DNA of 56,242 nucleotides from a virus. This document shows positions 3,620-56,242 of this stretch, one piece after another. The notes under the pieces are model-generated. The model saw nothing but the letters and a program-made list of their open reading frames with translations, was not told the origin of the DNA and made no database searches. A program made the translations under genes and the position numbers. Every line of letters starts with the position of its first letter. Position 1 is the first letter of the stretch. The stretch is taken from the IMG/VR virus record IMGVR_UViG_3300045988_040265, positions 1-56,242 of that record; one strand, written 5' to 3'.

Positions 3620-4470
3620 AGTGTATCTCCTATAAAATCACTTATATTCATCTGACTATCCTTTTCAAATACAAGCATTTCATTTTTTGCACGCTCGTAA
3701 AAGTTTCTGTCAATCTCGAATCCGTATGCACTTCTGCCAAGTTCTGCGGCGGCTCTTAGCGTGCTACCGCTACCACAACAAGGGTCAATAACAACATCTC
3801 CCTCGTCTGTAAAAATCTCAATCAGCTTTTTAAGGACAGCCACGGGCTTTTGTGCTGGATGAATTTTCGGTATATCTTTTCCGTCTTTCTCCCAAGTAAA
3901 CCAATTAAAAATCATATGTCCTGTACCTCTGATATTCTTTCCGTTTTCATCAATCTGCAAGCCGTTTCTGAATTTCGGCAACTTATTTCGGTACAGTACA
4001 AGTGCATATTCCGTAGCACCTACGATACGCATATTCGCTTTAAACACCTGCGGACTGTAATTTTTACAGAATACAAGAGGTATGTAATTGACAAATCCGT
4101 GTTTCTTCGCCGCGGCAATCAATGTTGACAACTGCTCAAATGAGCAAAATACAATCATACAAGGACTGTTACTACTTCTGCCCCTTGCGATAGGCTTTGT
4201 GTCCTCTTTTTTCAACATCTTTGAGCAAAAATGGAAGTATTCATACAGATTAAAATTAAAATCTGAATTAAAAGCCGCCTTTTTCGCAAGTTTGCTCTCA
4301 CCGTTCTTATTATCGCCGCCGTTGTACCACATAGGGTTACTTCCGTAGAAGTTAGTTCCTACATTGTAAGGAACATCAGCTATAATCAACTGTGCTGGCG
4401 GTATTGCGTATTTCTTGTAATTCTGCATAGAATCACGATATATCTCACATTTAATCTTCTTTTTATACAT
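3616..4470 (-). CDS. Orphan DNA methyltransferase (N6-A/N4-C, beta class: motif IV before motif I)
   Basis: IIADVPYNVG (DPPY-like) near the N-terminus and VIDPCCGSGST (FxGxG) near the C-terminus. No adjacent restriction gene. Confidence 0.85.
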   Translation of the reverse strand: MYKKKIKCEIYRDSMQNYKKYAIPPAQLIIADVPYNVGTNFYGSNPMWYNGGDNKNGESKLAKKAAFNSDFNFNLYEYFHFCSKMLKKEDTKPIARGRSSNSPCMIVFCSFEQLSTLIAAAKKHGFVNYIPLVFCKNYSPQVFKANMRIVGATEYALVLYRNKLPKFRNGLQIDENGKNIRGTGHMIFNWFTWEKDGKDIPKIHPAQKPVAVLKKLIEIFTDEGDVVIDPCCGSGSTLRAAAELGRSAYGFEIDRNFYERAKNEMLVFEKDSQMNISDFIGDTL

Positions 4471-13423: not shown

Positions 13424-14320
13424 CTATTCTGCCTGCATAAATGGCGGCAATGTGCTATCTTCTGCCTGTTTTTCGGTTGCTTCTGTGGCTGTACTGTCGA
13501 TAATGTCGCTTTCTTCAAAATCAACGCTATTTGCGTTCTGCTCAATGTCATAAGCAACATCCTGTTCAAGCATTTCATCGTGGCTGATTTCCTCATAATC
13601 ATCTTCTCCGCCAAAACCACTATGAGTATTGTTGATAGATTTAAGGAGCCTGTTCTTAACAGTTTTCATAGCCATCTGGTCTGTAAACTTCTGATGAACT
13701 CCGTTTCCATTCTCCTTATATCCAAATCCCTGTTTCCAAGCTGTCTTTATCTGCTTGATAGTCATAACTTCTGTTTTAACAGTTCCGTCTTTCATAACCG
13801 CAACCGCATAAGCACCCTTAATCTTGTCATTGTCGATATTGTCAATTTCCTGTGTGTGCTCTACGATTGTTTTCTTTCCATTCTTGATTGTGTAACTAAA
13901 CTTATCTCCCTCATAGACAACCTCTGCGTTAATATCAGCAAGCCCGTATCTTCTAGCAACGCAAGTTGCACCATAAACAGACGGCTGACAACTTAATTTG
14001 CCCGCATAAGCAACTGGGTAACACTGCTTCTTTCTTATTGATAATCCGTCTGTTACCATTTCAATAAGCGCATTTTCAATACTTGCCCTTGTGCAACTCT
14101 GTAATACAGGCTTCTTATTCATATCCTGTGTGTCCTGTAAAATAAGCATTGCTGACATAAGCTCGTTTGTATAGTTGTAATCTTTAGGGAATGTTAAGCC
14201 AAATTTCTCTTTCTGCTTGATTTTTACAACCATTCCCTCTGTAAAATCTTTTGCTACAAGCTCTCTGCTTTCAGCTTCTTTCTTTTCTGCAACTGCCGTA
14301 TTCTCTTCCATATTATTCAT
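13424..14320 (-). CDS. recT: RecT-family single-strand annealing recombinase
   Basis: ..CYPVAYAGKLSCQPSVYG..VVYEGDKFSY..GAYAVAVMKDG..MAMKTVKNRLLK, acidic C-terminal tail. Confidence 0.85.
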   Translation of the reverse strand: MNNMEENTAVAEKKEAESRELVAKDFTEGMVVKIKQKEKFGLTFPKDYNYTNELMSAMLILQDTQDMNKKPVLQSCTRASIENALIEMVTDGLSIRKKQCYPVAYAGKLSCQPSVYGATCVARRYGLADINAEVVYEGDKFSYTIKNGKKTIVEHTQEIDNIDNDKIKGAYAVAVMKDGTVKTEVMTIKQIKTAWKQGFGYKENGNGVHQKFTDQMAMKTVKNRLLKSINNTHSGFGGEDDYEEISHDEMLEQDVAYDIEQNANSVDFEESDIIDSTATEATEKQAEDSTLPPFMQAE

Positions 14321-15667: not shown

Positions 15668-15746
15668 ATGATACAGAATGGGCGAACACCGTTGTTGTTA
15701 TTGCAATTGTTGTTGTTGATATTGCCAGCCGGGGCAACAACGGTTT
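15668..15746 (-). repeat. DGR template repeat (66-nt core 15681-15746 plus a divergent IMH*-like 3' end 15668-15680)
   Basis: Base-by-base alignment to both VRs; the coding strand is full of AAC/AAT codons. Confidence 0.9.
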
Positions 15747-15770: not shown

Positions 15771-16142
15771 TTACCTTTCCCTGTCCTTTGTTCTCCAAGC
15801 AATAGCCATATGCTTTATATCAGAAACCATCTTTGACCAGTATTCCATGCTTTGCATATTTATAATGTTCAACTTCATTGACAGTTCAATGTAAAACATC
15901 AATTCGTCACAATGCGTTATGGCTTTAGTCTGCAATTCTGATCTCTCCCTTCGAAACAATCTCAAATCTGTTCTATTTGCTTCATACAAATACTCATATA
16001 TTTCAAGTGCTTTATTCTGCATCTTATCTACCAGTGAAAATCTGTATTTCTTTGGGTATCTGTTGCAATTTGAAGTTATACGCAAAGTATGTTCAGCTAA
16101 TTCTTTCGCCTTAAGAATTACTTTTAATTCTGTATCTACCAT
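15771..16142 (-). CDS. avd: Avd-like accessory variability determinant (four-helix-bundle family)
   Basis: About 123 aa, basic and helical (RYPKKYRFSLVDKMQNKALEIYEYLYEAN); canonical position between target and TR. Confidence 0.75.
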   Translation of the reverse strand: MVDTELKVILKAKELAEHTLRITSNCNRYPKKYRFSLVDKMQNKALEIYEYLYEANRTDLRLFRRERSELQTKAITHCDELMFYIELSMKLNIINMQSMEYWSKMVSDIKHMAIAWRTKDRER

Positions 16143-16146
16143 TTTA

Positions 16147-16755
16147 TTATTCCTCTGATTCAAAGATTAAAGAGGAAAAGATACAAACCGGGCGAACACC
16201 GAAGTTGTAATTGCAACTGATGCTGCTGATAACGCCAGCCGGGGCAACAACGGCCACAGATCTATTCCAGTCATTACAAGGTGTACTCCATGGAGAAATC
16301 AACCACCAATAAAAATTAGTATTAGGTATAAGTTTTCTGTATTTCCTATACTCATCAATAGTAAGAAGTGATACCATATCTTCGCATTCTCCGTATTCCG
16401 TCTGTCCATCAAGAGAAGTCAAATCACGGTTAAACGTAATAATGTTTTCTTCTCCAATTTCATCAGAAATCTTTTCAAAAAATTCTGTATTGAGATATTC
16501 TCTTAACTGGCTTCCTGCCCAATCACTGGATCTCTCATCAAATTCCATGGAATCTTCTAACTTATCAGCAAGACACATATAACCATTTTCTGTAATGTCA
16601 AGTATCTTCCAGTTAATCCCGGCTATTTCAAAAGTGTCTCCAATCCCTAATCCTACCGGAATCTTTCTAACTTTGTTTGTTGCTTCAAGAATCGCAACCT
16701 TATTTCTCAATTCATTAATCTGCTCCTGTAATACTTTCATTGTTAAATTAGCCAT
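16147..16755 (-). CDS. DGR target protein 2 (202 aa, C-terminal variable region)
   Basis: C-terminus ..YWWLISPWS..AVVAPAGVISSISCNYNFGVRPVCIF carries VR2. Confidence 0.9.
   Translation of the reverse strand: MANLTMKVLQEQINELRNKVAILEATNKVRKIPVGLGIGDTFEIAGINWKILDITENGYMCLADKLEDSMEFDERSSDWAGSQLREYLNTEFFEKISDEIGEENIITFNRDLTSLDGQTEYGECEDMVSLLTIDEYRKYRKLIPNTNFYWWLISPWSTPCNDWNRSVAVVAPAGVISSISCNYNFGVRPVCIFSSLIFESEE
16178..16256 (-). repeat. DGR variable repeat VR2 (core 16191-16256, IMH-like end 16178-16190)
   Basis: 12 mismatches to the TR, all at TR adenines (coding strand). Confidence 0.9.
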
Positions 16756-16757
16756 AA

Positions 16758-17357
16758 TTATTCTCCTTTCGATACAAAGATATTAGATTTTAAGATACAA
16801 ACCGGGCGAACACCGTTGACGTAATTGCAATCGTTGCAGCGGATACCGCCAGCCGGGGCAACAACGGCTATCTGATATTTCCAACCTCTATCATCAGTAG
16901 ACCACGGCGTGCAAGTCCACCACCAATCATCAAGGTCTTTATTAACAATAAAATCATTGTACTGTCTTGCTTCTTCAAAAGTTGCAACTCTAACTTTACT
17001 TTCAATCAAATCAAAACGATCTTGATTATCAACAGTTTTTACAGCAATATCTTCTTTGATAATGTTGTATTTACCTACGGCGTTTTCAATAACCGGCTGA
17101 ATTTCCTTTTCAATAATCTTTTTGAGATTAGAATTGTTATAATCAGGAGTATTTTCATCAAATACAACATCCTCTGCCATAAAATTCTTAGATATTACCC
17201 TTGTTGCATTTCCATAATGTCTAAGAACGATAAAGTCATGGGTACCAATCTTAAAAACGTCTCCCGGATTCAGTTCTGACAACTGTACCTTGTTATCCTT
17301 TTCTGCTTTTTCCAACTGCTTGACAAGTTCTCTTGCAATTTCTAATGCTTTGCTCAT
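16758..17357 (-). CDS. DGR target protein 1 (199 aa, C-terminal variable region)
   Basis: C-terminus ..WWWTCTPWS..AVVAPAGGIRCNDCNYVNGVRPVCIL carries VR1. Confidence 0.9.
   Translation of the reverse strand: MSKALEIARELVKQLEKAEKDNKVQLSELNPGDVFKIGTHDFIVLRHYGNATRVISKNFMAEDVVFDENTPDYNNSNLKKIIEKEIQPVIENAVGKYNIIKEDIAVKTVDNQDRFDLIESKVRVATFEEARQYNDFIVNKDLDDWWWTCTPWSTDDRGWKYQIAVVAPAGGIRCNDCNYVNGVRPVCILKSNIFVSKGE
16792..16870 (-). repeat. DGR variable repeat VR1 (core 16805-16870, IMH-like end 16792-16804)
   Basis: 12 mismatches to the TR, all at TR adenines (coding strand). Confidence 0.9.
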
Positions 17358-17374: not shown

Positions 17375-17650
17375 TTATGATTCCTCAAAATGCTCCCTAA
17401 TATCGTTTCCGTTATCGTCATACCACTCACACCATTCCTGTTCCTCATCATCAAAATATTCAAGCCCGGAAGCATTACAATAGTTTGGCTTTATGTTGTT
17501 TTTGTACTGAAATAAGTCATAATCCCACAATGTATTAAGAATTTTCCAAGCCTGTTCAACACTTTCAACTTCTACATAAAAGTTTTTAACCGCTCCTACT
17601 TGGCAATTATGCCAAACTCTTAATTTCGTCATATTATTCCTCGCTTTCAT
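17375..17650 (-). CDS. Hypothetical protein
   Basis: ORF in the operon. Confidence 0.6.
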   Translation of the reverse strand: MKARNNMTKLRVWHNCQVGAVKNFYVEVESVEQAWKILNTLWDYDLFQYKNNIKPNYCNASGLEYFDDEEQEWCEWYDDNGNDIREHFEES

Positions 17651-17948
17651 TTATTATTTTTAATTCAGATTTGAGTTTTTCAATTTCTTCCAATTTGTCT
17701 GCAATTCTTCTTTCAGCCCTGTTCCGGAATGCCTCTTTTGCATATTCAAAGTTAGGTTTTGTAAGAAACAGGCAATTAAAATTAGTTATTCGCCCAACAT
17801 CATCTTTCCTTACCGTACTATAGTTGTTTGGAAAAACTCTATCAACAGGCTTGTATGTCTTGGGCTTCTCTTCTGCTTCACATTCCTTAACGTATAAACC
17901 TTTAGGGTTTCTACCATAAGTATTCAAAAAGTAAAAGTATAATTTCAT
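17634..17948 (-). CDS. Hypothetical protein
   Basis: ORF in the operon. Confidence 0.6.
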   Translation of the reverse strand: MKLYFYFLNTYGRNPKGLYVKECEAEEKPKTYKPVDRVFPNNYSTVRKDDVGRITNFNCLFLTKPNFEYAKEAFRNRAERRIADKLEEIEKLKSELKIINESEE

Positions 17949-17949
17949 A

Positions 17950-19884
17950 TCACACCGCCTTAATCACAAGCTCTTTGTCCTGTGTATGCTTTAACAAAAT
18001 TAACTGGCTCTCAACCTTTGGTATTCTCCAGTTGTCAACAGATTCAGCATCATCAATGATGATTGGAATGCTGATTCCAAGCTTTTTCTGAAATGCCATA
18101 CAAATATCCATTTCTGTAAGCATTCTGGCACCATGGTTAAGATTTCTTGAATAGCTTTCTCCGTCTTTGATAAAGTCGCAACACTCTTCAATCTCTCCAT
18201 TAACAAGAGGTCTGAACATTTTCACTTTGCAGAAGTCTAGGTATTTATTAACGTCAGCCGTGAGGATTTCGTTCTTTCTTCTTTCAAAGTCTTTAAGCAA
18301 CTCTTTGATTCTTTCCTGATCTGCAATTTTCTGTTCACAATCTCTCCACTCTTTTGTAAGCTCCTCAATTCTTTCATCAATCAGAACATCACCTTCGGCT
18401 TTAGAAATCTTAATTTCAACAGAAGAAAGTTCCTGTCTAATATCAAGTTCTCTTTCCTTTAATTCTGAATTGATTTCAGAAACAGATACATTTTTCAAAG
18501 AATCCTCAAGCTTGATTATTCGTGCTGACAATTCCTTATACTTTTCATCAGAAGAAATATCCGCAACACTTGGTAACTGAAAAATTTCTGATTCAATTCC
18601 CTTTAACTTTCTGTCCGCTTCAACCATTCTGTCCTCGTTTGACGAAATCATATTTTTTGTGCAGTCAAGCCTTTCCTGCAAATGCTCAATCTCTTTCTTG
18701 ATTTCGATTCCAGACTTTTCAATATTTGAAATCCTAGTTAATTTTTCGGATACAAAGTTGTCCTTTAACTTCTGTATTTCTTCACCCGGAAGCTCCCTGT
18801 GGCAAGTAGGGCAAGTCGTTGTAGATTCGTCAAAACATTCTTCCTTTACCGACTTCCACTGCCCTGCAAGTCTTTCTCTCTCGGAATTTTTCTTTTCAAT
18901 TTCCTCCCGGTATTTTAATAACTCCGTTTTGCAATTTTCTATTCCGTTTGCAATTTCAAACCTTTCAAGTTCCGCTTTAGACTTCTGATTCATCAGCTCT
19001 CTCTTCTGTTTTTGAAGTTCATCATTGGCAGAGTTTTGAATCTCTGAAATTTCAAACTTCAATTTCATAATTTCATCAAGAAAACCGTCATGCTCTTTAA
19101 CTGTTGATGATAAATCTTTCTGTCTTTCAATAACTTCGTTCAGTTCTTTCTTTAATCCGGATCTCTGTAGTTCAAGCTCCGCAACATCAATGTTTACTTT
19201 TTGCAGGTTCAATTCATCAATCCTTGACTGATATTCTGCTGCCTGCTGCTTTAATCCCTTTGTTGCGTTTTTGCCCTTTGAACCATTCAGTACCCTGTTG
19301 CAACGATCTTTAAGCTCTTTAACACTTCCGTCTTCAAACATAGGTTTTAACTCTTCAAAAGAAGAATCCATATCGCATATATCTGAATCTGTATGTGTGC
19401 TAAATACACCATTCAGAATTTCTCTCTGATCTGATGCGTTTTTTGAAAGAAGCGTCATTGCATTGATGCAGTAAGAAAGATTCTCAAAGTTTTCTTCTAA
19501 AAACTCTTTGTAGTCTCCGGCTTTCTTAAGAATGTCATTGATATAACATTCTGTTACATTTCCTGTAACTTCTCCTTTCTTGTTTACATTCTGCCTGTAC
19601 ACCTTTTTAAGCTGTTTTACGGTTCCGCCAATCTCCAATTCAATAAATGCCGTACAATCCTCGGAGTTAACGTCATTACCGTTTTTATCATGCGGTCTTA
19701 TTCCTGTAATTTCCTTGCCGTTTTCATCACGGCAATTTAATATCCACTGAATAATCTTCTTTATTGTTGATTTCCCAGCTTCGTTAATTCCGCATACCTC
19801 TGTAACATCACCAAAGGTTGCATCAAGTACATGATTTCCATAAAACTTAAAGCAATTATTCGCATATATTCTCTTTATTTTCAT
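17950..19884 (-). CDS. SMC/Rad50/SbcC-like AAA ATPase with coiled coil and zinc hook
   Basis: Walker A GINEAGKST, central coiled coil with CPTCHREL, Walker B-like IIIDDAES. The ATG at 19884 overlaps the upstream TGA. Confidence 0.8.
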   Translation of the reverse strand: MKIKRIYANNCFKFYGNHVLDATFGDVTEVCGINEAGKSTIKKIIQWILNCRDENGKEITGIRPHDKNGNDVNSEDCTAFIELEIGGTVKQLKKVYRQNVNKKGEVTGNVTECYINDILKKAGDYKEFLEENFENLSYCINAMTLLSKNASDQREILNGVFSTHTDSDICDMDSSFEELKPMFEDGSVKELKDRCNRVLNGSKGKNATKGLKQQAAEYQSRIDELNLQKVNIDVAELELQRSGLKKELNEVIERQKDLSSTVKEHDGFLDEIMKLKFEISEIQNSANDELQKQKRELMNQKSKAELERFEIANGIENCKTELLKYREEIEKKNSERERLAGQWKSVKEECFDESTTTCPTCHRELPGEEIQKLKDNFVSEKLTRISNIEKSGIEIKKEIEHLQERLDCTKNMISSNEDRMVEADRKLKGIESEIFQLPSVADISSDEKYKELSARIIKLEDSLKNVSVSEINSELKERELDIRQELSSVEIKISKAEGDVLIDERIEELTKEWRDCEQKIADQERIKELLKDFERRKNEILTADVNKYLDFCKVKMFRPLVNGEIEECCDFIKDGESYSRNLNHGARMLTEMDICMAFQKKLGISIPIIIDDAESVDNWRIPKVESQLILLKHTQDKELVIKAV

Positions 19885-20171
19885 GATACCGCCTCCCAAT
19901 ATTTCGCTACACCAGTTGCAATTGCTCTTGCCATGTTTCCAGATGGAAGAACACCTGCAAGCTTCGTTGTGTTGTAGTCGCTGTCTGATGGATGGGAAAT
20001 CTCTTCCGAAACCCTCCAGTTAGGTATTGCAATCCACCATGATTTTCCTTTGCCTAAAATGGTTCTGTACTTAAATCCATTGTACAGAACATCAAGCTCA
20101 AGTATTTCATAGCTACCACTGTACTTTACTTCCACGTCCTTATCTTCATCACTCGGCACAATATCTATCAT
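19881..20171 (-). CDS. Hypothetical protein (96 aa)
   Basis: The ATG at 20171 follows GGGGAGGGTGAATAAG. Confidence 0.55.
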   Translation of the reverse strand: MIDIVPSDEDKDVEVKYSGSYEILELDVLYNGFKYRTILGKGKSWWIAIPNWRVSEEISHPSDSDYNTTKLAGVLPSGNMARAIATGVAKYWEAVS

Positions 20172-21162: not shown

Positions 21163-21747
21163 CTATCTCCCTTCTGTGTTAAAATAAAGATCACCAGATT
21201 GCATATACGGAACCCCAAAACTGTGATAATAACCATTTCTAAAATAGTACATATCTGATGGGTGCCTGTTTTCAATCAAGGCATTCTCAACTGCCTGCTC
21301 AACCTGTTCTGTCCATCCATAGTTTTCAAATCCGCTCCATGTGGTTACCTCATATTGGTTTTTCTGGTATATAACATCATGTAACGTATCCGGAAATTTA
21401 TCACTTTCAAGCCGATTAAGAATCGTCAGTGCTACCATTTCTTGTGCTTCAATACTCTGATTTCCAGCTTCGCAATACACGGCCCTACATAACAATTCTC
21501 TTTCTTCCTTATTTAAAAGGATTCTGTAAACCGTTTCTTCCGTGCTTGCCTGTTCCACAACCTCTACTTCTTTGACCTCTACTTCAACAGGTACAGGATC
21601 TGCATTTACTTCTTCAATCTGTATTTCCTGTCTTGGTTCAGTTGTCTTACATACAATTGCAGTAGCAACCATAACCGCTACAATTCCAATAAATACTACT
21701 CTTTCTTTTATCAATCCCTTAACTCCATTCTTATCTGTGCATTGCAA
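21163..21747 (-). CDS. SleB-type cell wall hydrolase with an N-terminal membrane anchor
   Basis: LLCRAVYCEAGNQS..VALTILNRLESDKFPDTLHDVIYQKNQYE; N-terminal hydrophobic helix. Confidence 0.8.
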   Translation of the reverse strand: MQCTDKNGVKGLIKERVVFIGIVAVMVATAIVCKTTEPRQEIQIEEVNADPVPVEVEVKEVEVVEQASTEETVYRILLNKEERELLCRAVYCEAGNQSIEAQEMVALTILNRLESDKFPDTLHDVIYQKNQYEVTTWSGFENYGWTEQVEQAVENALIENRHPSDMYYFRNGYYHSFGVPYMQSGDLYFNTEGR

Positions 21748-22586: not shown

Positions 22587-22696
22587 TTTGTACTTTGTAC
22601 ATTCTTAATATATTACATAGTACATAATATGTCAAGCGTTATTTTTGTACTTTGTACAATTATATTGTTGATTTTTTTCTACTTTTCATTTATAAT
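22587..22696. promoter_or_regulatory. Divergent early/lysogeny promoter region with two identical palindromic operators
   Basis: TTTGTACTTTGTACA at 22587-22601 and 22644-22658 (TGTAC-N3-GTACA), plus a degenerate third site at 22612-22624. Leftward TTGACA (22630-22635) -17- TATATT (22607-22612). Rightward TTGATT (22668-22673) -17- TATAAT (22691-22696). Confidence 0.7.
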
Positions 22697-22721: not shown

Positions 22722-23090
22722 ATGAAGGATAGATTAAAAGAAATAAGAAAAACCAACCAAGCTTGGAAGACGCAAGACGATTTTGCAGAATTTTTAGGAA
22801 TATCAAAATCAAATCTGTCAAGTTATGAAGCAGGACGCAGAATGCCATCAGATGCAGTTGTACAGTTGATTTGTCAAAAATGTAATATCAATGAAGAGTG
22901 GTTGCGTACCGGAAACGGTGAAATGTTTAATTCAAGGACTAGAAATCAAGAAATCGGTGCTTTTGCAAATGAAGTTATGATGCTTGATGATGATAACTTT
23001 AAGAAGAAGTTTATTGATGCATTAATTAAGCTTGATTCAAAAGACTGGGAACACTTGGAAGAAATAGCAAAGAAGTTATTAAGCAATTAA
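22722..23090 (+). CDS. XRE-family HTH regulator (122 aa, no peptidase domain)
   Basis: QDDFAEFLGISKSNLSSYEAGRRMPS; AAGGAGG RBS. Confidence 0.85.
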   Translation: MKDRLKEIRKTNQAWKTQDDFAEFLGISKSNLSSYEAGRRMPSDAVVQLICQKCNINEEWLRTGNGEMFNSRTRNQEIGAFANEVMMLDDDNFKKKFIDALIKLDSKDWEHLEEIAKKLLSN

Positions 23091-23092
23091 AA

Positions 23093-23116
23093 AGAGGGGA
23101 TTATCTCCCCTCTTTT
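23093..23116. terminator. Bidirectional intrinsic terminator
   Basis: AGAGGGGA-ttatc-TCCCCTCT flanked by an A-run and a T-run. Confidence 0.7.
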
Positions 23117-23211: not shown

Positions 23212-23264
23212 TTTACCCTCCCAATATCCTTCGGTAGCAATAGTCTTATTATAGAACAAATGTT

Positions 23265-23296
23265 TGTCAATGTCAATTCCCCCTGTCAACTTGACA
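23265..23296. promoter_or_regulatory. Second operator cluster (TGTCAA repeats and a TGTCAA-C-TTGACA palindrome)
   Basis: TGTCAA at 23265, 23271 and 23284, with an inverted TTGACA at 23291. It sits between divergent genes 23211(-) and 23490(+). Confidence 0.5.
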
Positions 23297-24966: not shown

Positions 24967-25833
24967 TTACTTAGCTCCGTTCTTTTTCATTTTCGTAAAC
25001 TGCTCATAAAGCTCTGCAATTAAGTGTGACTTTAGCCATTCAGTCCAAAATTCAAGGCCTTTGCTATCTGCATTTCTGTTAAACACATTTTTATATGCAC
25101 ATTTTACCGCATACTTTCGTGCTTCATCTGACTTTGCAAATTCATTTTCAATTTCTACCAAACTTGCATCATCTGTCAGCTTATTTTTCCAGTAATTAAG
25201 TCCACCATCATCTGCCACTCTTCCAAGGTATGTTGCATACAACGTTTTAACAAAAACTATTTTTTGACCATCGTTCATATTATAAAAATCCCCTTTCTTT
25301 TCTTCTACCGGATGTAGTCTTTTATTTACTTCTTCCGCAATATAAAAATGCTTACTGTATAAGTATTCCCCAGGACAAGCTTTATTTGCAAACCATCTAT
25401 GAACCGTCATGTTCTGCTTATCTATTTGACCTATTAGAGACCTATCTGCTTGCCATTTAAGGCTATCAATTCCGTTTCTAGTACAAATATCTGTACACAA
25501 TTCAATTAATGCCTTCATAGCCTTTTCAGATACGTGCCATCCGGTAGATTCCCCACCATCATTTGCTACTTCAATTGTAACTGCCCTCATGTCATTTGAC
25601 TTATTAGAGCTACACCAAGAACCGTTACATTCTTCAACATACATTGCAATTCTTCCGTCAGAACCGATTCCGTAATTTGAAGACGCTTCTCGGTTTTGGA
25701 ATACATTTCCGCACTGTTCCACAGTTAAATCGCCTGCCATGCAGTGAATTGTAATCGTGTCTATTGTGTGCGTTCTTCCGTTATAATGATATGGACTTAA
25801 CAATATATAACTAATTAATTTACTATTACTCAT
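24967..25833 (-). CDS. Endolysin: N-acetylmuramoyl-L-alanine amidase (Amidase_2/PGRP) with DUF4214-like C-terminal repeats
   Basis: ITIHCMAGDLTVEQCGNVFQNREASSNYGIG..VTIEVAND; C-terminal LNYWKNKL / LEFWTEWL repeats. Confidence 0.88.
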   Translation of the reverse strand: MSNSKLISYILLSPYHYNGRTHTIDTITIHCMAGDLTVEQCGNVFQNREASSNYGIGSDGRIAMYVEECNGSWCSSNKSNDMRAVTIEVANDGGESTGWHVSEKAMKALIELCTDICTRNGIDSLKWQADRSLIGQIDKQNMTVHRWFANKACPGEYLYSKHFYIAEEVNKRLHPVEEKKGDFYNMNDGQKIVFVKTLYATYLGRVADDGGLNYWKNKLTDDASLVEIENEFAKSDEARKYAVKCAYKNVFNRNADSKGLEFWTEWLKSHLIAELYEQFTKMKKNGAK

Positions 25834-25845
25834 AGTATCATCTCC

Positions 25846-27783
25846 TTAAATTGTATAAGTAAATGTCCAATACATACTTGTTGCCGGCATGTTAGCAGCG
25901 GTTCCATCATTTTTCTTAGTGTATCCTATCTTGACTTCTCCTGTTGTTTCTATAACAATTTGACCGATATAAATTCCATTAAATCTATGATAATCAATAA
26001 TCCGATATAATGGCTTGCTATCGTCAGGAAGCGTTCCAACAAGTGCATATCCAGCAGATGTGCCAAGTTCTTGTGCAATTTTTGATACAATGCAGGTTAT
26101 TGTTGCTGAATTGTATCTTTTATTCAAAGTTATTGCTCCGGTTTCAATGTTTGTCTTATTGGTTATATCGGTCGAAGAAAAATTTGAAGCATCTAAGTCT
26201 CCAATATTCATTGACCCATGAACCCAAAGTCCATTTTCGATTACGGTTGCCTTGTTTATATGCAAAGTATTCGGATAAATTTTCCCAGCAATTATTGATA
26301 TTTCGTTTTCTGAATAATAAAAAATATTATCGTTATTTCTATAATTAAGTTCTAATTTATCCGTACCTTGTCCTTGATTTCCAGTCAGTGCTAGTGCCGT
26401 TATATATTCCCAAGGGTCAGTTGCACTCCCAACTATTTCCCACGGCAATCTAAGCTTTAGGCCTCCGTCAATAATGACATCATTACTTTTTATTGAACCT
26501 CCAACAATTGTTAAATCAGTGCATGTTTGTTTTCCATCTGCATCAACCTTCCATTTGTCAGAATCAATTACTACACGATTTCCTGTTAGTGTTATCTGTT
26601 CTGTTTCTAATGATAGTTGAGAACTTACTTCTCCTTTGGATACTTTTAGCTTTAGTCCCTCTTCGGTTTTTGCAATTTTGATTTTCAATCTTCCATTGTC
26701 TGAATTAAGTTTTGCCAACTGACCAATAACACTGTTTACGTCCTGCTGGATATACTCTTCTCCACTTGCTTCTATGGAATCAGTTAATGCTTGTATGCCG
26801 TTGATTTCTCTTTTTAATATATAAGTTGTATCCAAATTTCCAGATTCATCATTAAAAGAGACCTTATCTCCTAAGTCAAAATATGGCTGGCCAACTGATT
26901 CAATAGTTGCGGGTCTGTATGATATTCCGTTAATTTTTCCTGCAATCGTATTTGCAATGCTTATTAATTCCGCTTCGGTTTTGTCTGCAATAAGATAATT
27001 GTCTGTAATAATATATGGATTTGTATGGCTTGTAGACTGATATACAATATCACTGTCTGTAAACTTAATTGTAACTCCATCAATGGCAGAAGTATTATAG
27101 TCTTCACACTGCGGATATGATCTTAATATTCCGTTTAACGTATCTACTGGATCTCCAGTTGATAAATACACGTATTCAAAATTTCCACCCCTTGAAATGT
27201 TTCCAAAGCATCCGTTTAGCTCACAAATACCCTGCATTAAATCTAATCCATTAATCGCTCCATCATCATCTAGGGTTTTGTTTATTTCCATTGAATCAAA
27301 TGGTAATGTTGCTTCTACCTGCTCCAACCCCACATGCCCGCATAAACCATCTCTTAAATCCTTTACTGTAACCGGAAACACTAAACTTCTATACCATTCC
27401 CCAACATCAACAGATAGTTTTTTCATCCTGTCATATGCAGTAATCTTTCTGAATGGTCTTCCTACTTCTTTCTTTGAAGATTCTACCGTAAACAAGCCTA
27501 GTGAAAGTTCTGTTGTATCACTATCTACTAACAATTTTGGTTGTATCTCTTTACCAATCAAATCTTCTGTAATCTCAGCAACAGTAATTTCAAAACTGGT
27601 TGAATTACAAGAGCCAAACTTTATGTTTTCATCATCGGACAACGATTGCTTTATTCTCATGCTTTCTGAAACTATGTTACTGTTTGTTATTGTTGTTTCA
27701 TTTCCGGATATAGAAATATTCAGTTTCTTTCTTCCATTACCGCTTCTGTACAACTCTTTTAATTCATTACTTATATTAATCAT
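25846..27783 (-). CDS. Tail fibre / tail-associated minor structural protein (receptor-binding candidate)
   Basis: Size, position after tape measure and Dit, N-terminus MINISNELKELYRSGN.. The ATG at 27783 overlaps the upstream TGA. Confidence 0.65.
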   Translation of the reverse strand: MINISNELKELYRSGNGRKKLNISISGNETTITNSNIVSESMRIKQSLSDDENIKFGSCNSTSFEITVAEITEDLIGKEIQPKLLVDSDTTELSLGLFTVESSKKEVGRPFRKITAYDRMKKLSVDVGEWYRSLVFPVTVKDLRDGLCGHVGLEQVEATLPFDSMEINKTLDDDGAINGLDLMQGICELNGCFGNISRGGNFEYVYLSTGDPVDTLNGILRSYPQCEDYNTSAIDGVTIKFTDSDIVYQSTSHTNPYIITDNYLIADKTEAELISIANTIAGKINGISYRPATIESVGQPYFDLGDKVSFNDESGNLDTTYILKREINGIQALTDSIEASGEEYIQQDVNSVIGQLAKLNSDNGRLKIKIAKTEEGLKLKVSKGEVSSQLSLETEQITLTGNRVVIDSDKWKVDADGKQTCTDLTIVGGSIKSNDVIIDGGLKLRLPWEIVGSATDPWEYITALALTGNQGQGTDKLELNYRNNDNIFYYSENEISIIAGKIYPNTLHINKATVIENGLWVHGSMNIGDLDASNFSSTDITNKTNIETGAITLNKRYNSATITCIVSKIAQELGTSAGYALVGTLPDDSKPLYRIIDYHRFNGIYIGQIVIETTGEVKIGYTKKNDGTAANMPATSMYWTFTYTI

Positions 27784-28202
27784 GATAATGTATTCACCCC
27801 ATAACTTATCCATGCCATTCTTGTTGATTGATATTGTATTTTATTTTCATCCGCGAAGTACATCTGCGGACTAAAATCAGCCATGTACATGTCACTTGTG
27901 ACGTACTTATCTAGTTCCGGCACATAGACTTCTACACTTGCTTTCTTTTCTACTGAATCTATATAGTTATTTCTGATATTCAGCATAATCTCACTCATCT
28001 GACGATCATCAAGCATATTTCTAGTTTCAAATTCAACTTTAGGTGCCTGTTTTGCTAATGCCGTTCTGTGCAGTCCGCCATCTGTATCTCTGTAAGAATC
28101 CAAATCTTGTCCGTAATTTGTTGCAGAATAGCTTTCTGCAGCTATCATGGATAGTGGTATTTTATAATTTCCAACTTTAATTAAATATCCGTTATATTCC
28201 AT
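27780..28202 (-). CDS. Distal tail protein-like (called by position)
   Basis: Immediately downstream of the tape measure gene. Confidence 0.5.
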   Translation of the reverse strand: MEYNGYLIKVGNYKIPLSMIAAESYSATNYGQDLDSYRDTDGGLHRTALAKQAPKVEFETRNMLDDRQMSEIMLNIRNNYIDSVEKKASVEVYVPELDKYVTSDMYMADFSPQMYFADENKIQYQSTRMAWISYGVNTLS

Positions 28203-45309: not shown

Positions 45310-45501
45310 TCATTCATACCTGATCGGTATAAACAAAAATGTTAGCGGATACATAATCAAATTTCTAAATGTTATATCTGGCTTTCTGCCATACACATTT
45401 TTACTAGCCACAGATACAAGGTATATGCCACTGAAAAGTTTAATTACTCTGAAATCCCTATGTAATTCCATCATTTGTCTGGTATTAACTCTTTTAAGCA
45501 T
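45310..45501 (-). CDS. Hypothetical protein (63 aa)
   Basis: AAGGAG RBS 8 nt upstream of the ATG. Confidence 0.4.
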   Translation of the reverse strand: MLKRVNTRQMMELHRDFRVIKLFSGIYLVSVASKNVYGRKPDITFRNLIMYPLTFLFIPIRYE

Positions 45502-47444: not shown

Positions 47445-47915
47445 TTAGATTGTTGAATAGATTGTAGCATCATCATCTATTACAATTTCTTCTAAATCCG
47501 TCCCGGCGTTCAGGACACGCCCAGGAACGGCAAACGGAAAGAGAAGATCAATTGTGCATTCCCCGCCTTCCCTGATTGGCTCAGAATCAAACGCATTTAC
47601 GGCTGTTCCAGATTCAGAAAGCGCATCCTTGCGCTCAGGCGAAAGATCGCCCCATTTCGTGCCCTCTAAATGGAGGTACGAATAATTGCCGGAAATTTCC
47701 GCCGCTGTCTCTTCTGCTTCCTCAACTGTAAACAGTCCGGCGAATGTCTCCGCCATGTCATTAATCCCGGTCTGTGCGATAACATCCCGCGCAACCTCTG
47801 AAAGATCCAGGGTGTCCAGATAATCAGCAACAACCTTATCAAGCTTTCGCTTCTTATCTCCTCCCCTGTTTACAATGTCCCTGATTTCGTTTCTGCTCAT
47901 CTCTAAATATTCCAT
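47445..47915 (-). CDS. Hypothetical acidic protein (156 aa)
   Basis: ORF with its own TTGACG-17-TATTAT promoter copy. Confidence 0.6.
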   Translation of the reverse strand: MEYLEMSRNEIRDIVNRGGDKKRKLDKVVADYLDTLDLSEVARDVIAQTGINDMAETFAGLFTVEEAEETAAEISGNYSYLHLEGTKWGDLSPERKDALSESGTAVNAFDSEPIREGGECTIDLLFPFAVPGRVLNAGTDLEEIVIDDDATIYSTI

Positions 47916-54970: not shown

Positions 54971-55189
54971 TTGATTACCTCGTTGATTACCTTTCACTTT
55001 TTCACCTATTTTAGGTGATACCATACAAGTCTCCTTTCCCTAGTATTTACAAGGCTTTCAGACCGTTTCTCTATATTCTAAAATAATGAGACACGGGGGA
55101 TTCGAACCCCGCCGCAATTCCTCTAAAGCCTTGATTTTCCTAACTTTTTTGGTTTTCATTTTGATTACCATGATTACTTTTTGATTACT
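54971..55189. promoter_or_regulatory. attP candidate: tRNA 3'-end-like core (55087-55115) flanked by TTGATTAC arm-type repeats
   Basis: Core minus sense GCGGCGGGG-TTCGAAT-CCCCC-GTGTCTC-A. TTGATTAC(C/T) occurs at 54971, 54983, 55161 and 55181, with ATGATTACT at 55170. Inverted repeat TCACCTA-ttt-TAGGTGA at 55002-55018. Confidence 0.6.
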
Positions 55190-56242
55190 TATGCAGAAAA
55201 AGCACTCTCAATAATCCGCTCTGCTTCTTCTCTGCTTTTGTTGTTGTAGTAATAAAAAGCTCTAGTAGTCTTAATGTCTGTGTGACCCATCTGTGATATT
55301 GTAATGTTATCAGGAACACCTGCATCAATAAGGTGAGTACCGTATGTCATTCTTGCCTTATGTCCCGATCTCCTCTGAATTTTCAGATCATCGCATATAC
55401 GATATAATTTTTCCGTAAATGCGTGTCCTCGCATCCTTTTACCAGACTTGGTAAAAATGTACTCATTACAACTACCACTTATTTCTTTGATTTTTTTCAA
55501 CAAATTAATTGTCTGTTTGGTTATTATAACATTTCTAAATCCAGCATCCGTTTTTGGAAAATCCCTTACTTCAAAAATGTAATTTCCATCATCATCTTTG
55601 TAGCGTATCTCCGTTTTGCTGATATTAATAGAATTTTCATTTATATCCGACCATTTTAAGGATGATAACTCTCCAACTCTCATGCCTGTTTGAAATGCTA
55701 AAAGAACACCATATAAAAGCAATGATGGTTCCTGATTTAAGATGTAATCCGCTATCATTCTTTCTTCTTCGGCGGTGAATACTTTCAAACTATCATCAAC
55801 ATATTTCTTTGTGAAAATCTTCTTTGACAAGTCAAGATCTCCCATGAAATTTGTTATACTGATATTTGTGTATCCTTTTTTCTTTCCATATTTGAAAATT
55901 CCATTAATTAACGTTCTAAGTCCGCTCCAAGCCTTAGATGTAAGATTCATAGAATGAATCGTTGTTTTTATAAATTCTTCAAGCAAATCTTCTGTAATGA
56001 ACCTAAATTCAATTTCAGAAATGAAAGAGTTTTTAATATACCTATCATAGTCGGTTGAATATCTATCATATGTCTGCCGTTGAATCTCTCCATAACTTAA
56101 TTTGCTTTCAATCCACATATTATATACATCTTCAATATAAGGCTCATTTGACATGTTTTTGTAATAATCTACAATTGCATCTTCAATAGCGGATTCGTTA
56201 GTCCTTTTCAGAAGCCTTCTTCCGGATTTCGAATGTTTATCA
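55189..56242 (-). CDS. int: Tyrosine integrase (catalytic body). The ORF is open to the window end and continues at 289->1; full length 407 aa.
   Basis: RVGELSSLKWSDI, HKARMTYGTHL, GHTDIKTTRAFYY (R..HxxR..Y-type motifs). Confidence 0.9.
   Translation of the reverse strand, partial: DKHSKSGRRLLKRTNESAIEDAIVDYYKNMSNEPYIEDVYNMWIESKLSYGEIQRQTYDRYSTDYDRYIKNSFISEIEFRFITEDLLEEFIKTTIHSMNLTSKAWSGLRTLINGIFKYGKKKGYTNISITNFMGDLDLSKKIFTKKYVDDSLKVFTAEEERMIADYILNQEPSLLLYGVLLAFQTGMRVGELSSLKWSDINENSINISKTEIRYKDDDGNYIFEVRDFPKTDAGFRNVIITKQTINLLKKIKEISGSCNEYIFTKSGKRMRGHAFTEKLYRICDDLKIQRRSGHKARMTYGTHLIDAGVPDNITISQMGHTDIKTTRAFYYYNNKSREEAERIIESAFSA
56124..56242. repeat. Second copy of the terminal redundancy (same as 1-119)
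   Basis: Identical sequence. Confidence 0.95.

Follow-up and report, generated by a model that had tools for sequence, protein, structure and literature searches.

A complete diversity-generating retroelement (DGR) lies in IMG/VR virus record IMGVR_UViG_3300045988_040265, whose whole stretch of 56,242 nt was analyzed here and is called the window. The element consists of the accessory protein Avd, a template repeat (TR) and a reverse transcriptase (RT), and it serves two adjacent paralogous target genes, T1 and T2. A DGR that serves early-region targets only, as a tandem pair and without a virion target, is new. We read it as an active DGR working on two small early-region DUF6273 proteins that would be variable binders acting off the virion and outside the tail module, and give this joint reading a probability of roughly 60%. 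Phage DGRs are commonly taken for devices that switch tropism by altering tail proteins; the present cassette, active in nature, is a clean case whose targets are early genes only.

The TR-like repeat occurs in exactly three copies in the window, where ∼0.2 would be expected by chance: the TR itself and a variable repeat (VR) in each target, VR1 in T1 and VR2 in T2. All mismatches to the TR in the 64-nt core fall at TR adenines, 10 of 10 in VR1 and 9 of 9 in VR2, or 19 of 19 together. The 19 adenines of the TR are all within ten variable codons (nine AAY and one ATC), and the flanks that code for the scaffold are free of adenine. These ten codons surround a fixed Cys, and by simple arithmetic (15^9 × 4) they allow ∼1.5e11 possible peptides per target. 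The expected asymmetry between the initiation of mutagenic homing (IMH) site of the VRs and its TR counterpart (IMH*) is present. Both VRs read ...GGTGTTCGCCCGGTTTGTATC and the TR ...GGTGTTCGCCCATTCTGTATC, with GGTT in the VRs versus ATTC in the TR directly 3′ of the core. Reading the sequence by eye, we saw no convincing GC-rich hairpin or cruciform downstream of either VR. A scan of the window found no third VR in virion genes, and elsewhere only low-quality matches with three mismatches.

The protein components are also recognizable. Besides its PHROG match (Table 1), Avd matched NCBIfam NF033474 with an E value of 1.4e-12 and 47.8 bits, under the curated cutoff of 80, and gave a weak match to the bAvd Pfam family. 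The RT gene starts 71 nt after IMH*. The DGR-type RT motif [I/L]GxxxSQ appears in it as LGNQVAQ, read directly from the sequence, with a Ser to Ala change. The steps of retrohoming are established for DGRs, and the sequence features that they require are present here. In this process TR RNA is reverse-transcribed, its 19 adenines giving random substitutions in the cDNA. The mutated cDNA then takes the place of the corresponding 64-nt stretch at the 3′ end of T1 and of T2, so that ten codons are rewritten in each target.

Natural variants bear the mark of this process. Close variants of T1 and T2 in the protein database span 83–100% identity. The 42 variants of T2 at 91–100% identity differ almost solely at residues 175–185, with the internal Cys fixed. 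Among 35 close variants of T1, mean column entropy was 2.10 bits in the VR versus 0.24 elsewhere. The residues seen at variable positions (N, D, Y, S, G, C, I, F, V, L, R and H) are reachable from AAY by adenine mutagenesis. Because near-identical variants differ almost only at the ten TR-encoded residues, we conclude that the DGR is active in nature. Some variants (P0031 of T2 type; P0151 and P0156 of T1 type) carry after the VR the C-terminal tail of the other paralogue (ILKSNIFVSKGE versus IFSSLIFESEE; window regions 16147–16200 and 16758–16810), a sign that the two VR regions have exchanged sequence by recombination or gene conversion.

T1 and T2 share 34% identity and the same architecture. 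AlphaFold2 (AF2) models, run with a 99-sequence alignment, show an N-terminal helix (residues 2–21 in T1, 6–31 in T2) followed by an alpha/beta DUF6273 globule in which the VR forms a beta-hairpin. The helices are amphipathic, with hydrophobic residues at 7–8 of 10 a/d heptad positions. Judged by hydropathy only, neither protein has a transmembrane or signal-peptide-like stretch, the maximal Kyte-Doolittle 19-residue means being 0.76 (T1) and 1.25 (T2). Both are acidic (pI 5.25 and 4.43) and of ∼23 kDa. Thus the description in the initial annotation of this DNA, made from the sequence alone, held up: a DGR with two tandem targets of ∼200 aa lacking a signal peptide or transmembrane helix, each starting with a heptad-like helix and ending in a WW..PWS..AVVAPAG-[variable]-GVRPVCI scaffold. 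Its suggestion of a C-type-lectin-like fold for that scaffold was likewise borne out, since both proteins pass the Pfam threshold for DUF6273 and the models are confident. By analogy with this fold and with the precedents of Mtd and TvpA, the variable hairpin is probably the ligand-binding surface.

Database searches place T1 and T2 in a large family and say little of its function. PHROG 9958, matched by both, has no assigned function; neither matched NCBIfam, nor any PADLOC defense model at E ≤ 0.01. PHROG 10993, "Hoc-like head decoration", gave only a local match of 52–56 residues over the VR scaffold. The best Foldseek match of T2 was the DUF6273 domain of PDB 9qa6, an IgA protease (E 1.7e-7, TM-score 0.61 on the query). 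This domain was also the only credible match when the PDB was searched with the family profile, and Mtd was not matched in PDB searches. S100 matches in the profile search (E about 0.04) were dismissed as noise. The small-target family comprises 1,816 clusters at 50% identity (E ≤ 1e-3), most members being of 170–270 aa, and a signal-peptide-like N-terminus is missing in 149 of its 150 best representatives. Since a disulfide pair would speak for an extracellular life, the conserved cysteines C124, C181 and C191 of T2 were checked for covariation; they showed no clear co-occurrence, which favors neither a cytoplasmic nor an extracellular life.

The window has an exact 119-nt direct repeat at its ends (1–119 and 56124–56242). 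Because this terminal repeat is an assembler k-mer overlap, the window represents a complete circular phage genome of ∼56.1 kb. This gut phage is temperate, siphovirus-type and of Lachnospiraceae; close homologues in named genomes suggest hosts of that family, for example Lachnospira, Roseburia, Agathobacter and Dorea. Gene order on the minus strand begins with a cI/cro-type divergent switch, followed by Ant, a membrane-anchored Hydrolase_2 protein, DUF6906, an SSB-like protein, the SbcC-like ATPase, p104 and the GP17-like protein. T1, T2, Avd, TR and RT come next, then RecT, a metallo-beta-lactamase (MBL) hydrolase, YopX, a second SSB and a DNA methylase. The order ends with a DnaD-like initiator, a helicase loader, integrase, MazG, terminase and the virion genes, with endolysin last.

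Judged by its sequence, the promoter before the cro-like gene presumably opens the leftward early operon to which the cassette belongs. A divergent plus-strand promoter opposite it serves the cI-like repressor gene (22722–23090). From the cro-side promoter it is ∼5 kb downstream to the cassette, which precedes the replication genes, and a simple scan found no minus-strand terminator-like sites between 21080 and 13073. Gaps are 17 nt between the GP17-like gene and T1, 2 nt between T1 and T2, and 4 nt between T2 and the start codon of Avd (ATG at 16142). With the last tail gene ending at 25846 and endolysin at 24967, the cassette is ∼8.5 kb past the tail genes on the map; along the direction of transcription it is ∼30 kb upstream of the virion genes. 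The initial annotation had likewise seen a tightly packed operon (gaps of 2–17 nt, no visible terminators), far from the structural genes, with the cassette between an SMC/Rad50-like ATPase and recT, and Pfam and PHROG profiles confirmed the two flanking genes.

Table 1. Positions in the window of the retroelement, its targets and the surrounding early-region features
Feature	Position	Strand	Remarks
T1, 199 aa	16758–17357	−	PF19789 (DUF6273) 25.1 bits, cutoff 23.5; PHROG 9958 E 1e-26; AF2 pLDDT 95.1
T2, 202 aa	16147–16755	−	PF19789 38.2 bits, E 1.7e-9; PHROG 9958 E 1.4e-44; AF2 pLDDT 94.2
VR1	16794–16867	−	64-nt repeat 16804–16867, 10-nt IMH 16794–16803; 10 TR mismatches
VR2	16180–16253	−	64-nt repeat 16190–16253, 10-nt IMH 16180–16189; 9 TR mismatches
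Avd, 123 aa from ATG at 16142	15771–16142	−	PHROG 3206 "Avd protein of DGR", E 1.7e-21
TR	15670–15743	−	64-nt core 15680–15743 plus IMH*; encodes VVAPAG-NINNNNCNNNN-GVR
RT, 349 aa	14549–15598	−	YMDD box; RVT_1 E 1.8e-14; PADLOC generic RT E 1e-29
RecT single-strand annealing protein	13424–14320	−	PF03837 E 1e-35; downstream boundary of variable slot
GP17-like small protein	17375–17650	−	PF17420 "Superinfection exclusion gene product 17" E 1.5e-22; PHROG 1510 "superinfection exclusion" E 2.7e-24
p104, 104-aa protein	17634–17948	−	accompanies ATPase and T1 in some relatives (L004, L024); missing from L013
SbcC/Rad50-like ATPase	17950–19899	−	PHROG SbcC-like subunit E 2e-33, recombinase E 6e-36; weak Rad50 zinc hook; upstream boundary of variable slot
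Sigma-70-like promoter before cro-like gene	22607–22635	−	TTGACA-17-TATATT, 11/12 consensus matches; function inferred

Several other features of the genome deserve mention. A perfect (12/12) sigma-70 consensus promoter at 23248–23276 on the minus strand points leftward, antisense through the cI-like gene, and is adjoined by a strong hairpin terminator-like site at 23090–23116; together they may form an extra layer of the lysis-lysogeny switch. The tyrosine-type integrase gene (55189–56154, minus strand) is between the replication and packaging genes and not by the repressor genes, atypical for a lysogeny module. The early operon includes a cell-wall hydrolase of Hydrolase_2, SleB-like type with an N-terminal hydrophobic anchor (21163–21747, minus strand). 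Hydrolase_2-like genes recur by small DUF6273 genes in distant phages (L017, 313–945; L050, 10597–11214; L051, 10605–11216), immediately downstream of the DUF6273 gene in the latter two. Their recurrence together might hint at a ligand related to the cell wall. The tail-tip module is unusually small (25846–28202): the 1,301-aa tape measure protein (TMP) is followed by nothing more than a DUF6711 protein of 140 aa and a single tail protein of 655 aa, and then by endolysin. No separate receptor-binding protein (RBP) gene was recognizable in that interval, and neither the PDB nor Pfam had a relative of the 655-aa protein, which leaves the RBP of this phage without an assignment.

We surveyed the gene context of the cassette in relatives, using a 13-sequence alignment for the search of prophage loci, as the 99-sequence alignment was too diverse to yield search patterns; a scan of genome contigs with T2 alone gave no match. 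Relatives with targets at 68–95% identity retain the order SbcC, T1, T2, Avd, RT, RecT, and the RT is 66–99% identical in those that keep the cassette. The GP17-like gene is an accessory early gene of only some relatives, found in L012 and not in L011. In four of the prophage loci described below (L026, L028, L031 and L032) the cassette follows RecT and MBL rather than preceding RecT. Two relatives (L014 and L015) keep the SSB, SbcC-like, RecT-like and MBL genes but lack the whole cassette, with an unrelated 412-aa open reading frame in its slot. We interpret the DGR and its targets, on this account, as accessory cargo in a variable slot, an accessory-gene hotspot. The 412-aa slot protein (L014 3481–4719, and the equivalent position of L015) is rich in Cys and KxG repeats.

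Among 28 prophage loci in named genomes, 15 have the T1-T2 tandem; of those 15, Avd is present in 12 and RT in 10. SSB, SbcC, RecT or MBL markers were within 10 kb in 13 of the 28, and TMP, tail or capsid markers were beside the target in none. The nearest virion-type genes were a terminase ∼2.4 kb downstream in L037 and 8 kb downstream in L039, and terminase plus portal ∼5–7 kb downstream in L019, where the order is SSB, two targets, Avd, RT, Rep, terminase. Overall, in the ∼30 contexts from other phages and prophages that were examined besides the window, no homologue stood beside a recognized virion-structure gene. Identifiable neighbors across the surveyed contexts were early recombination, replication, methylase or accessory genes; for distant homologues they were DNA methylases, HNH, replication initiators, SbcC-like, Hydrolase_2-like, Ant and integrase genes, and in L022 the target homologue adjoins a Lar restriction-alleviation gene. 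That no surveyed member of the small-target class is beside a recognized virion-structure gene, and that every identifiable neighborhood is early, replication or accessory, is a second new observation. The cassette placement noted in the initial annotation thus recurs both in relatives and in unrelated phages, which suggests that small DUF6273 targets as a class, in several unrelated lineages of phages, may typically be placed in the early region.

One relative is a prophage of the cultured isolate Lachnospira intestinalis CLA-AA-H89B (L024 9392–11080, NZ_JBBMFS010000001.1). T1, T2 and Avd are still present in it, but the TR is gone, and so is the RT apart from its last ∼14 codons, which remain before RecT: a frozen DGR with intact targets, and a possible experimental system.

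More distant homologues occur in other phages. In tblastn searches the targets had ∼30% identity to nd4 tgt2, Toutatis gp24 and Lelie orf58; the nd4 tgt2 match was at 31% identity with E 7e-21, and that to nd12 had E 2e-15. Toutatis gp24, Lelie orf58 and Brigit gp06 are early-region homologues in isolated Faecalibacterium phages. The gene for Brigit gp06, a small DUF6273 protein, comes right behind the cI/cro genes and precedes exonuclease and RecT. Over 77 nt its 3′ end (4373–4449) agrees at 89.6% with the TR at 45411–45487 and with the VR of the Hoc-like gp60 at 47476–47552. We therefore take gp06 to be a second DGR target, remote from its TR by 41 kb. Comparing the Brigit Avd-RT intergenic region with the gp06 3′ end by BLAST was negative because the TR is inside the 3′ end of the annotated Avd reading frame; whole-genome BLAST then located it. 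Several 90%-identity clusters of gp06 hold thousands of member sequences, consistent with hypervariation. In nd4, the genes around tgt2 are those for exonuclease, SSB and DnaC, and a search of the surrounding 7 kb detected no homologue of the RT. We considered whether the DGR is co-located with RecT and SSB because cDNA integration has a mechanistic need for annealing proteins. We rejected this as the main explanation, since Brigit gp06, nd4 tgt2 and Toutatis gp24 are in early regions with RT and TR elsewhere.

Small targets of this kind are in the literature. Small single-domain DUF6273 DGR targets with flanking helices were published as nd4/nd12 tgt2 (Baykov et al. 2023, PMC10743442), and T1 and T2 show the same traits of a single DUF6273 domain, short flanking helices and a C-terminal VR as a beta-hairpin. 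The "small target" of Lelie/CP11 is another (PMC11792537). In Toutatisvirus the small target is 17.5 kb from the TR, and it is a core gene in 98.8% of Toutatis-like phages, DGR present or not (bioRxiv 10.1101/2024.10.15.618418). These published accounts of small DUF6273 targets report no virion proteomics for the proteins. The premise of the initial annotation, that phage DGR targets are typically tail proteins, is fair, as a global survey classed most viral DGR targets that way (PMC8144416). The novelty it implied for a different use of a DGR was not upheld as worded, given these small targets and the non-structural target of Quimbyvirus, published in 2021 (PMC8008677).

In the reading we favor, T1 and T2 would be made in the cytoplasm from the early operon and would oligomerize via the N-terminal helix, in the "neck plus carbohydrate-recognition domain (CRD)" manner of collectins. 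They would be variable ligand binders rather than canonical tail-module RBPs. Acting off the virion, they would bind a variable host or competitor molecule in the infected cell, or act after release at lysis. We see about an even chance that they are soluble, probably oligomeric binders made early that act off the virion overall. That they act on an intracellular target is a good deal more tentative. So is the generalization that small helix-plus-DUF6273 proteins are widespread early cytoplasmic hypervariable binders ("intrabodies") of Clostridia phages, retuned by DGRs against fast-evolving intracellular targets such as host defense or competing-phage proteins, with this window as a pure case having no adsorption role; we think it rather unlikely. 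The interpretation in the initial annotation, a hypervariable intracellular binder made early in infection, is as a whole partly supported.

A number of points weigh against off-virion action. The early status of the cassette is itself deduced from gene order and from consensus promoter and terminator scans. The gene position and the missing leader would be compatible with docking on the virion through the N-terminal helix, or with action after lysis. Early-made proteins can join particles later, and some real RBPs are encoded away from the tail genes. To our knowledge, the DGR binders characterized so far rely on multivalent display, and a coiled-coil neck is no worse a fit for binding at surfaces or through avidity than for binding inside the cell. 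Because the tail-tip module is minimal (TMP, DUF6711 and the one 655-aa protein) and without a separate RBP gene, there is room for an accessory adhesin. The structural markers of our context survey came from two phages only, so that divergent virion genes could escape it, and several surveyed loci were without any identifiable neighbor. In other phages one TR serves both a small target and a Hoc-like virion decoration protein (PMC10743442). Authors writing on small targets favor receptor binding, as a hypothesis, or leave the function open (PMC10743442; bioRxiv 10.1101/2024.10.15.618418).

Some of these points lead to the main rival reading, an adhesin or receptor-binding accessory attached to the virion: T1 and T2, trimerized by their helices, would dock on the tail tip or capsid and function like Mtd or a decoration protein despite their early-region genes, and the DGR would switch adsorption tropism or environmental adhesion as in Bordetella phage BPP-1. 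The minimal tail tip, the published hypotheses and the single Brigit TR serving a Hoc-like and a small protein all speak for it, as do a lectin-like VR scaffold of the same general fold as Mtd, a hairpin VR common to the Hoc-like tentaclins (PMC10743442), and BFVD structural neighbors of which some are labeled "receptor binding protein" or tail. However, the beta-prism and beta-sandwich attachment domains of Mtd are missing, with only a ∼25-residue helix in their place, and in none of the ∼30 further contexts was a recognized virion-structure gene beside the target. The cassette is moreover dispensable, swapped for an unrelated gene in L014 and L015 within a similar early recombination gene order, and the L. 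intestinalis prophage lost RT and TR yet kept its targets. We regard a virion adhesin as possible, though on the unlikely side. A sensor or exclusion factor, expressed from the prophage or during infection and recognizing proteins of superinfecting phages in the cell together with accessory genes such as the GP17-like one, appears improbable. It might be likened to the C-type-lectin sensor domains of DGR-diversified STAND/NLR-type bacterial proteins, and bacterial DGR targets tied to putative defense or signaling systems are known (cited in PMC8008677). The leaderless, predicted cytoplasmic targets do adjoin a GP17-family "superinfection exclusion" gene in a variable accessory slot, but they have no effector domain and match no PADLOC defense model, and GP17 is in only some relatives. 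The targets are also probably repressed in lysogens, because their genes are in a lytic early operon downstream of the cro-side promoter. Least credible is that the targets have little or no phage function, the DGR and targets being a self-contained mobile cassette in a permissive accessory slot. The cassette does behave as an indel, and its position shifts within the early region, from before RecT here to after RecT and MBL in the four prophage loci named above. Such a cassette does not account for scaffolds that are well conserved while VRs turn over, for a family as large as 1,816 clusters, for a small target that is core in 98.8% of Toutatis-like phages (bioRxiv 10.1101/2024.10.15.618418), or for targets left intact after RT loss in L024.

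If off-virion action is true, phages would use targeted hypermutation in conflicts within the cell or after lysis as well, and T1 and T2 would offer a compact natural 23-kDa scaffold with ∼1e11 variants for cytoplasmic binding. Function is directly testable, as there are cultivable carriers: Faecalibacterium phages Brigit, Toutatis and Lelie, and the prophage of L. intestinalis CLA-AA-H89B.

Among known systems, BPP-1 follows the same retrohoming logic (Avd, TR, RT, IMH and adenine mutagenesis), with a C-terminal VR on a C-type-lectin-type fold. Its target Mtd differs in that its gene closes the tail module and its product, a trimer of 381 aa, docks on tail fibers by means of beta-prism and beta-sandwich domains; in T1 and T2 a helix of 20–26 residues is all that precedes the lectin-like domain, and their genes are in an early operon. 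Tentaclins have an N-terminal DUF6273 domain whose VR lies close to the gene's 5′ end, followed by Ig-like domains, whereas T1 and T2 are without Ig-like domains and have the VR at the 3′ end. The only solved structure with a domain of the T1/T2 type is the N-terminal DUF6273 domain of the Thomasclavelia ramosa IgA protease (PDB 9qa6; PMC12402451). That protein is a secreted, cell-wall-anchored 137-kDa multidomain protease and not a DGR target, and its domain has no assigned ligand. The coiled-coil neck plus CRD of collectins (mannose-binding protein, SP-A and SP-D) resembles the helix plus globule of T1 and T2 by analogy only; Foldseek matches to collectin neck-plus-CRD structures were weak (E 0.2–1).

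Quimbyvirus (Benler et al. 2021, PMC8008677) is similar by description, with a C-type-lectin DGR target called non-structural, among defense and counter-defense genes, for which the authors proposed a role in phage-host conflict. It differs in its Bacteroidetes host, in having one of its two targets beside tail fiber genes, and in its frameshifted RT. The small targets of nd4/nd12, Lelie/CP11 and Toutatisvirus are, like T1 and T2, single DUF6273 C-type-lectin-like domains with a C-terminal hairpin VR, encoded in a non-structural region. Their small protein, though, accompanies a large Hoc-like tentaclin as an additional and often remote target. Here, by contrast, there is no large or virion target, and two small tandem paralogues are directly upstream of Avd-TR-RT, within the recombination operon.

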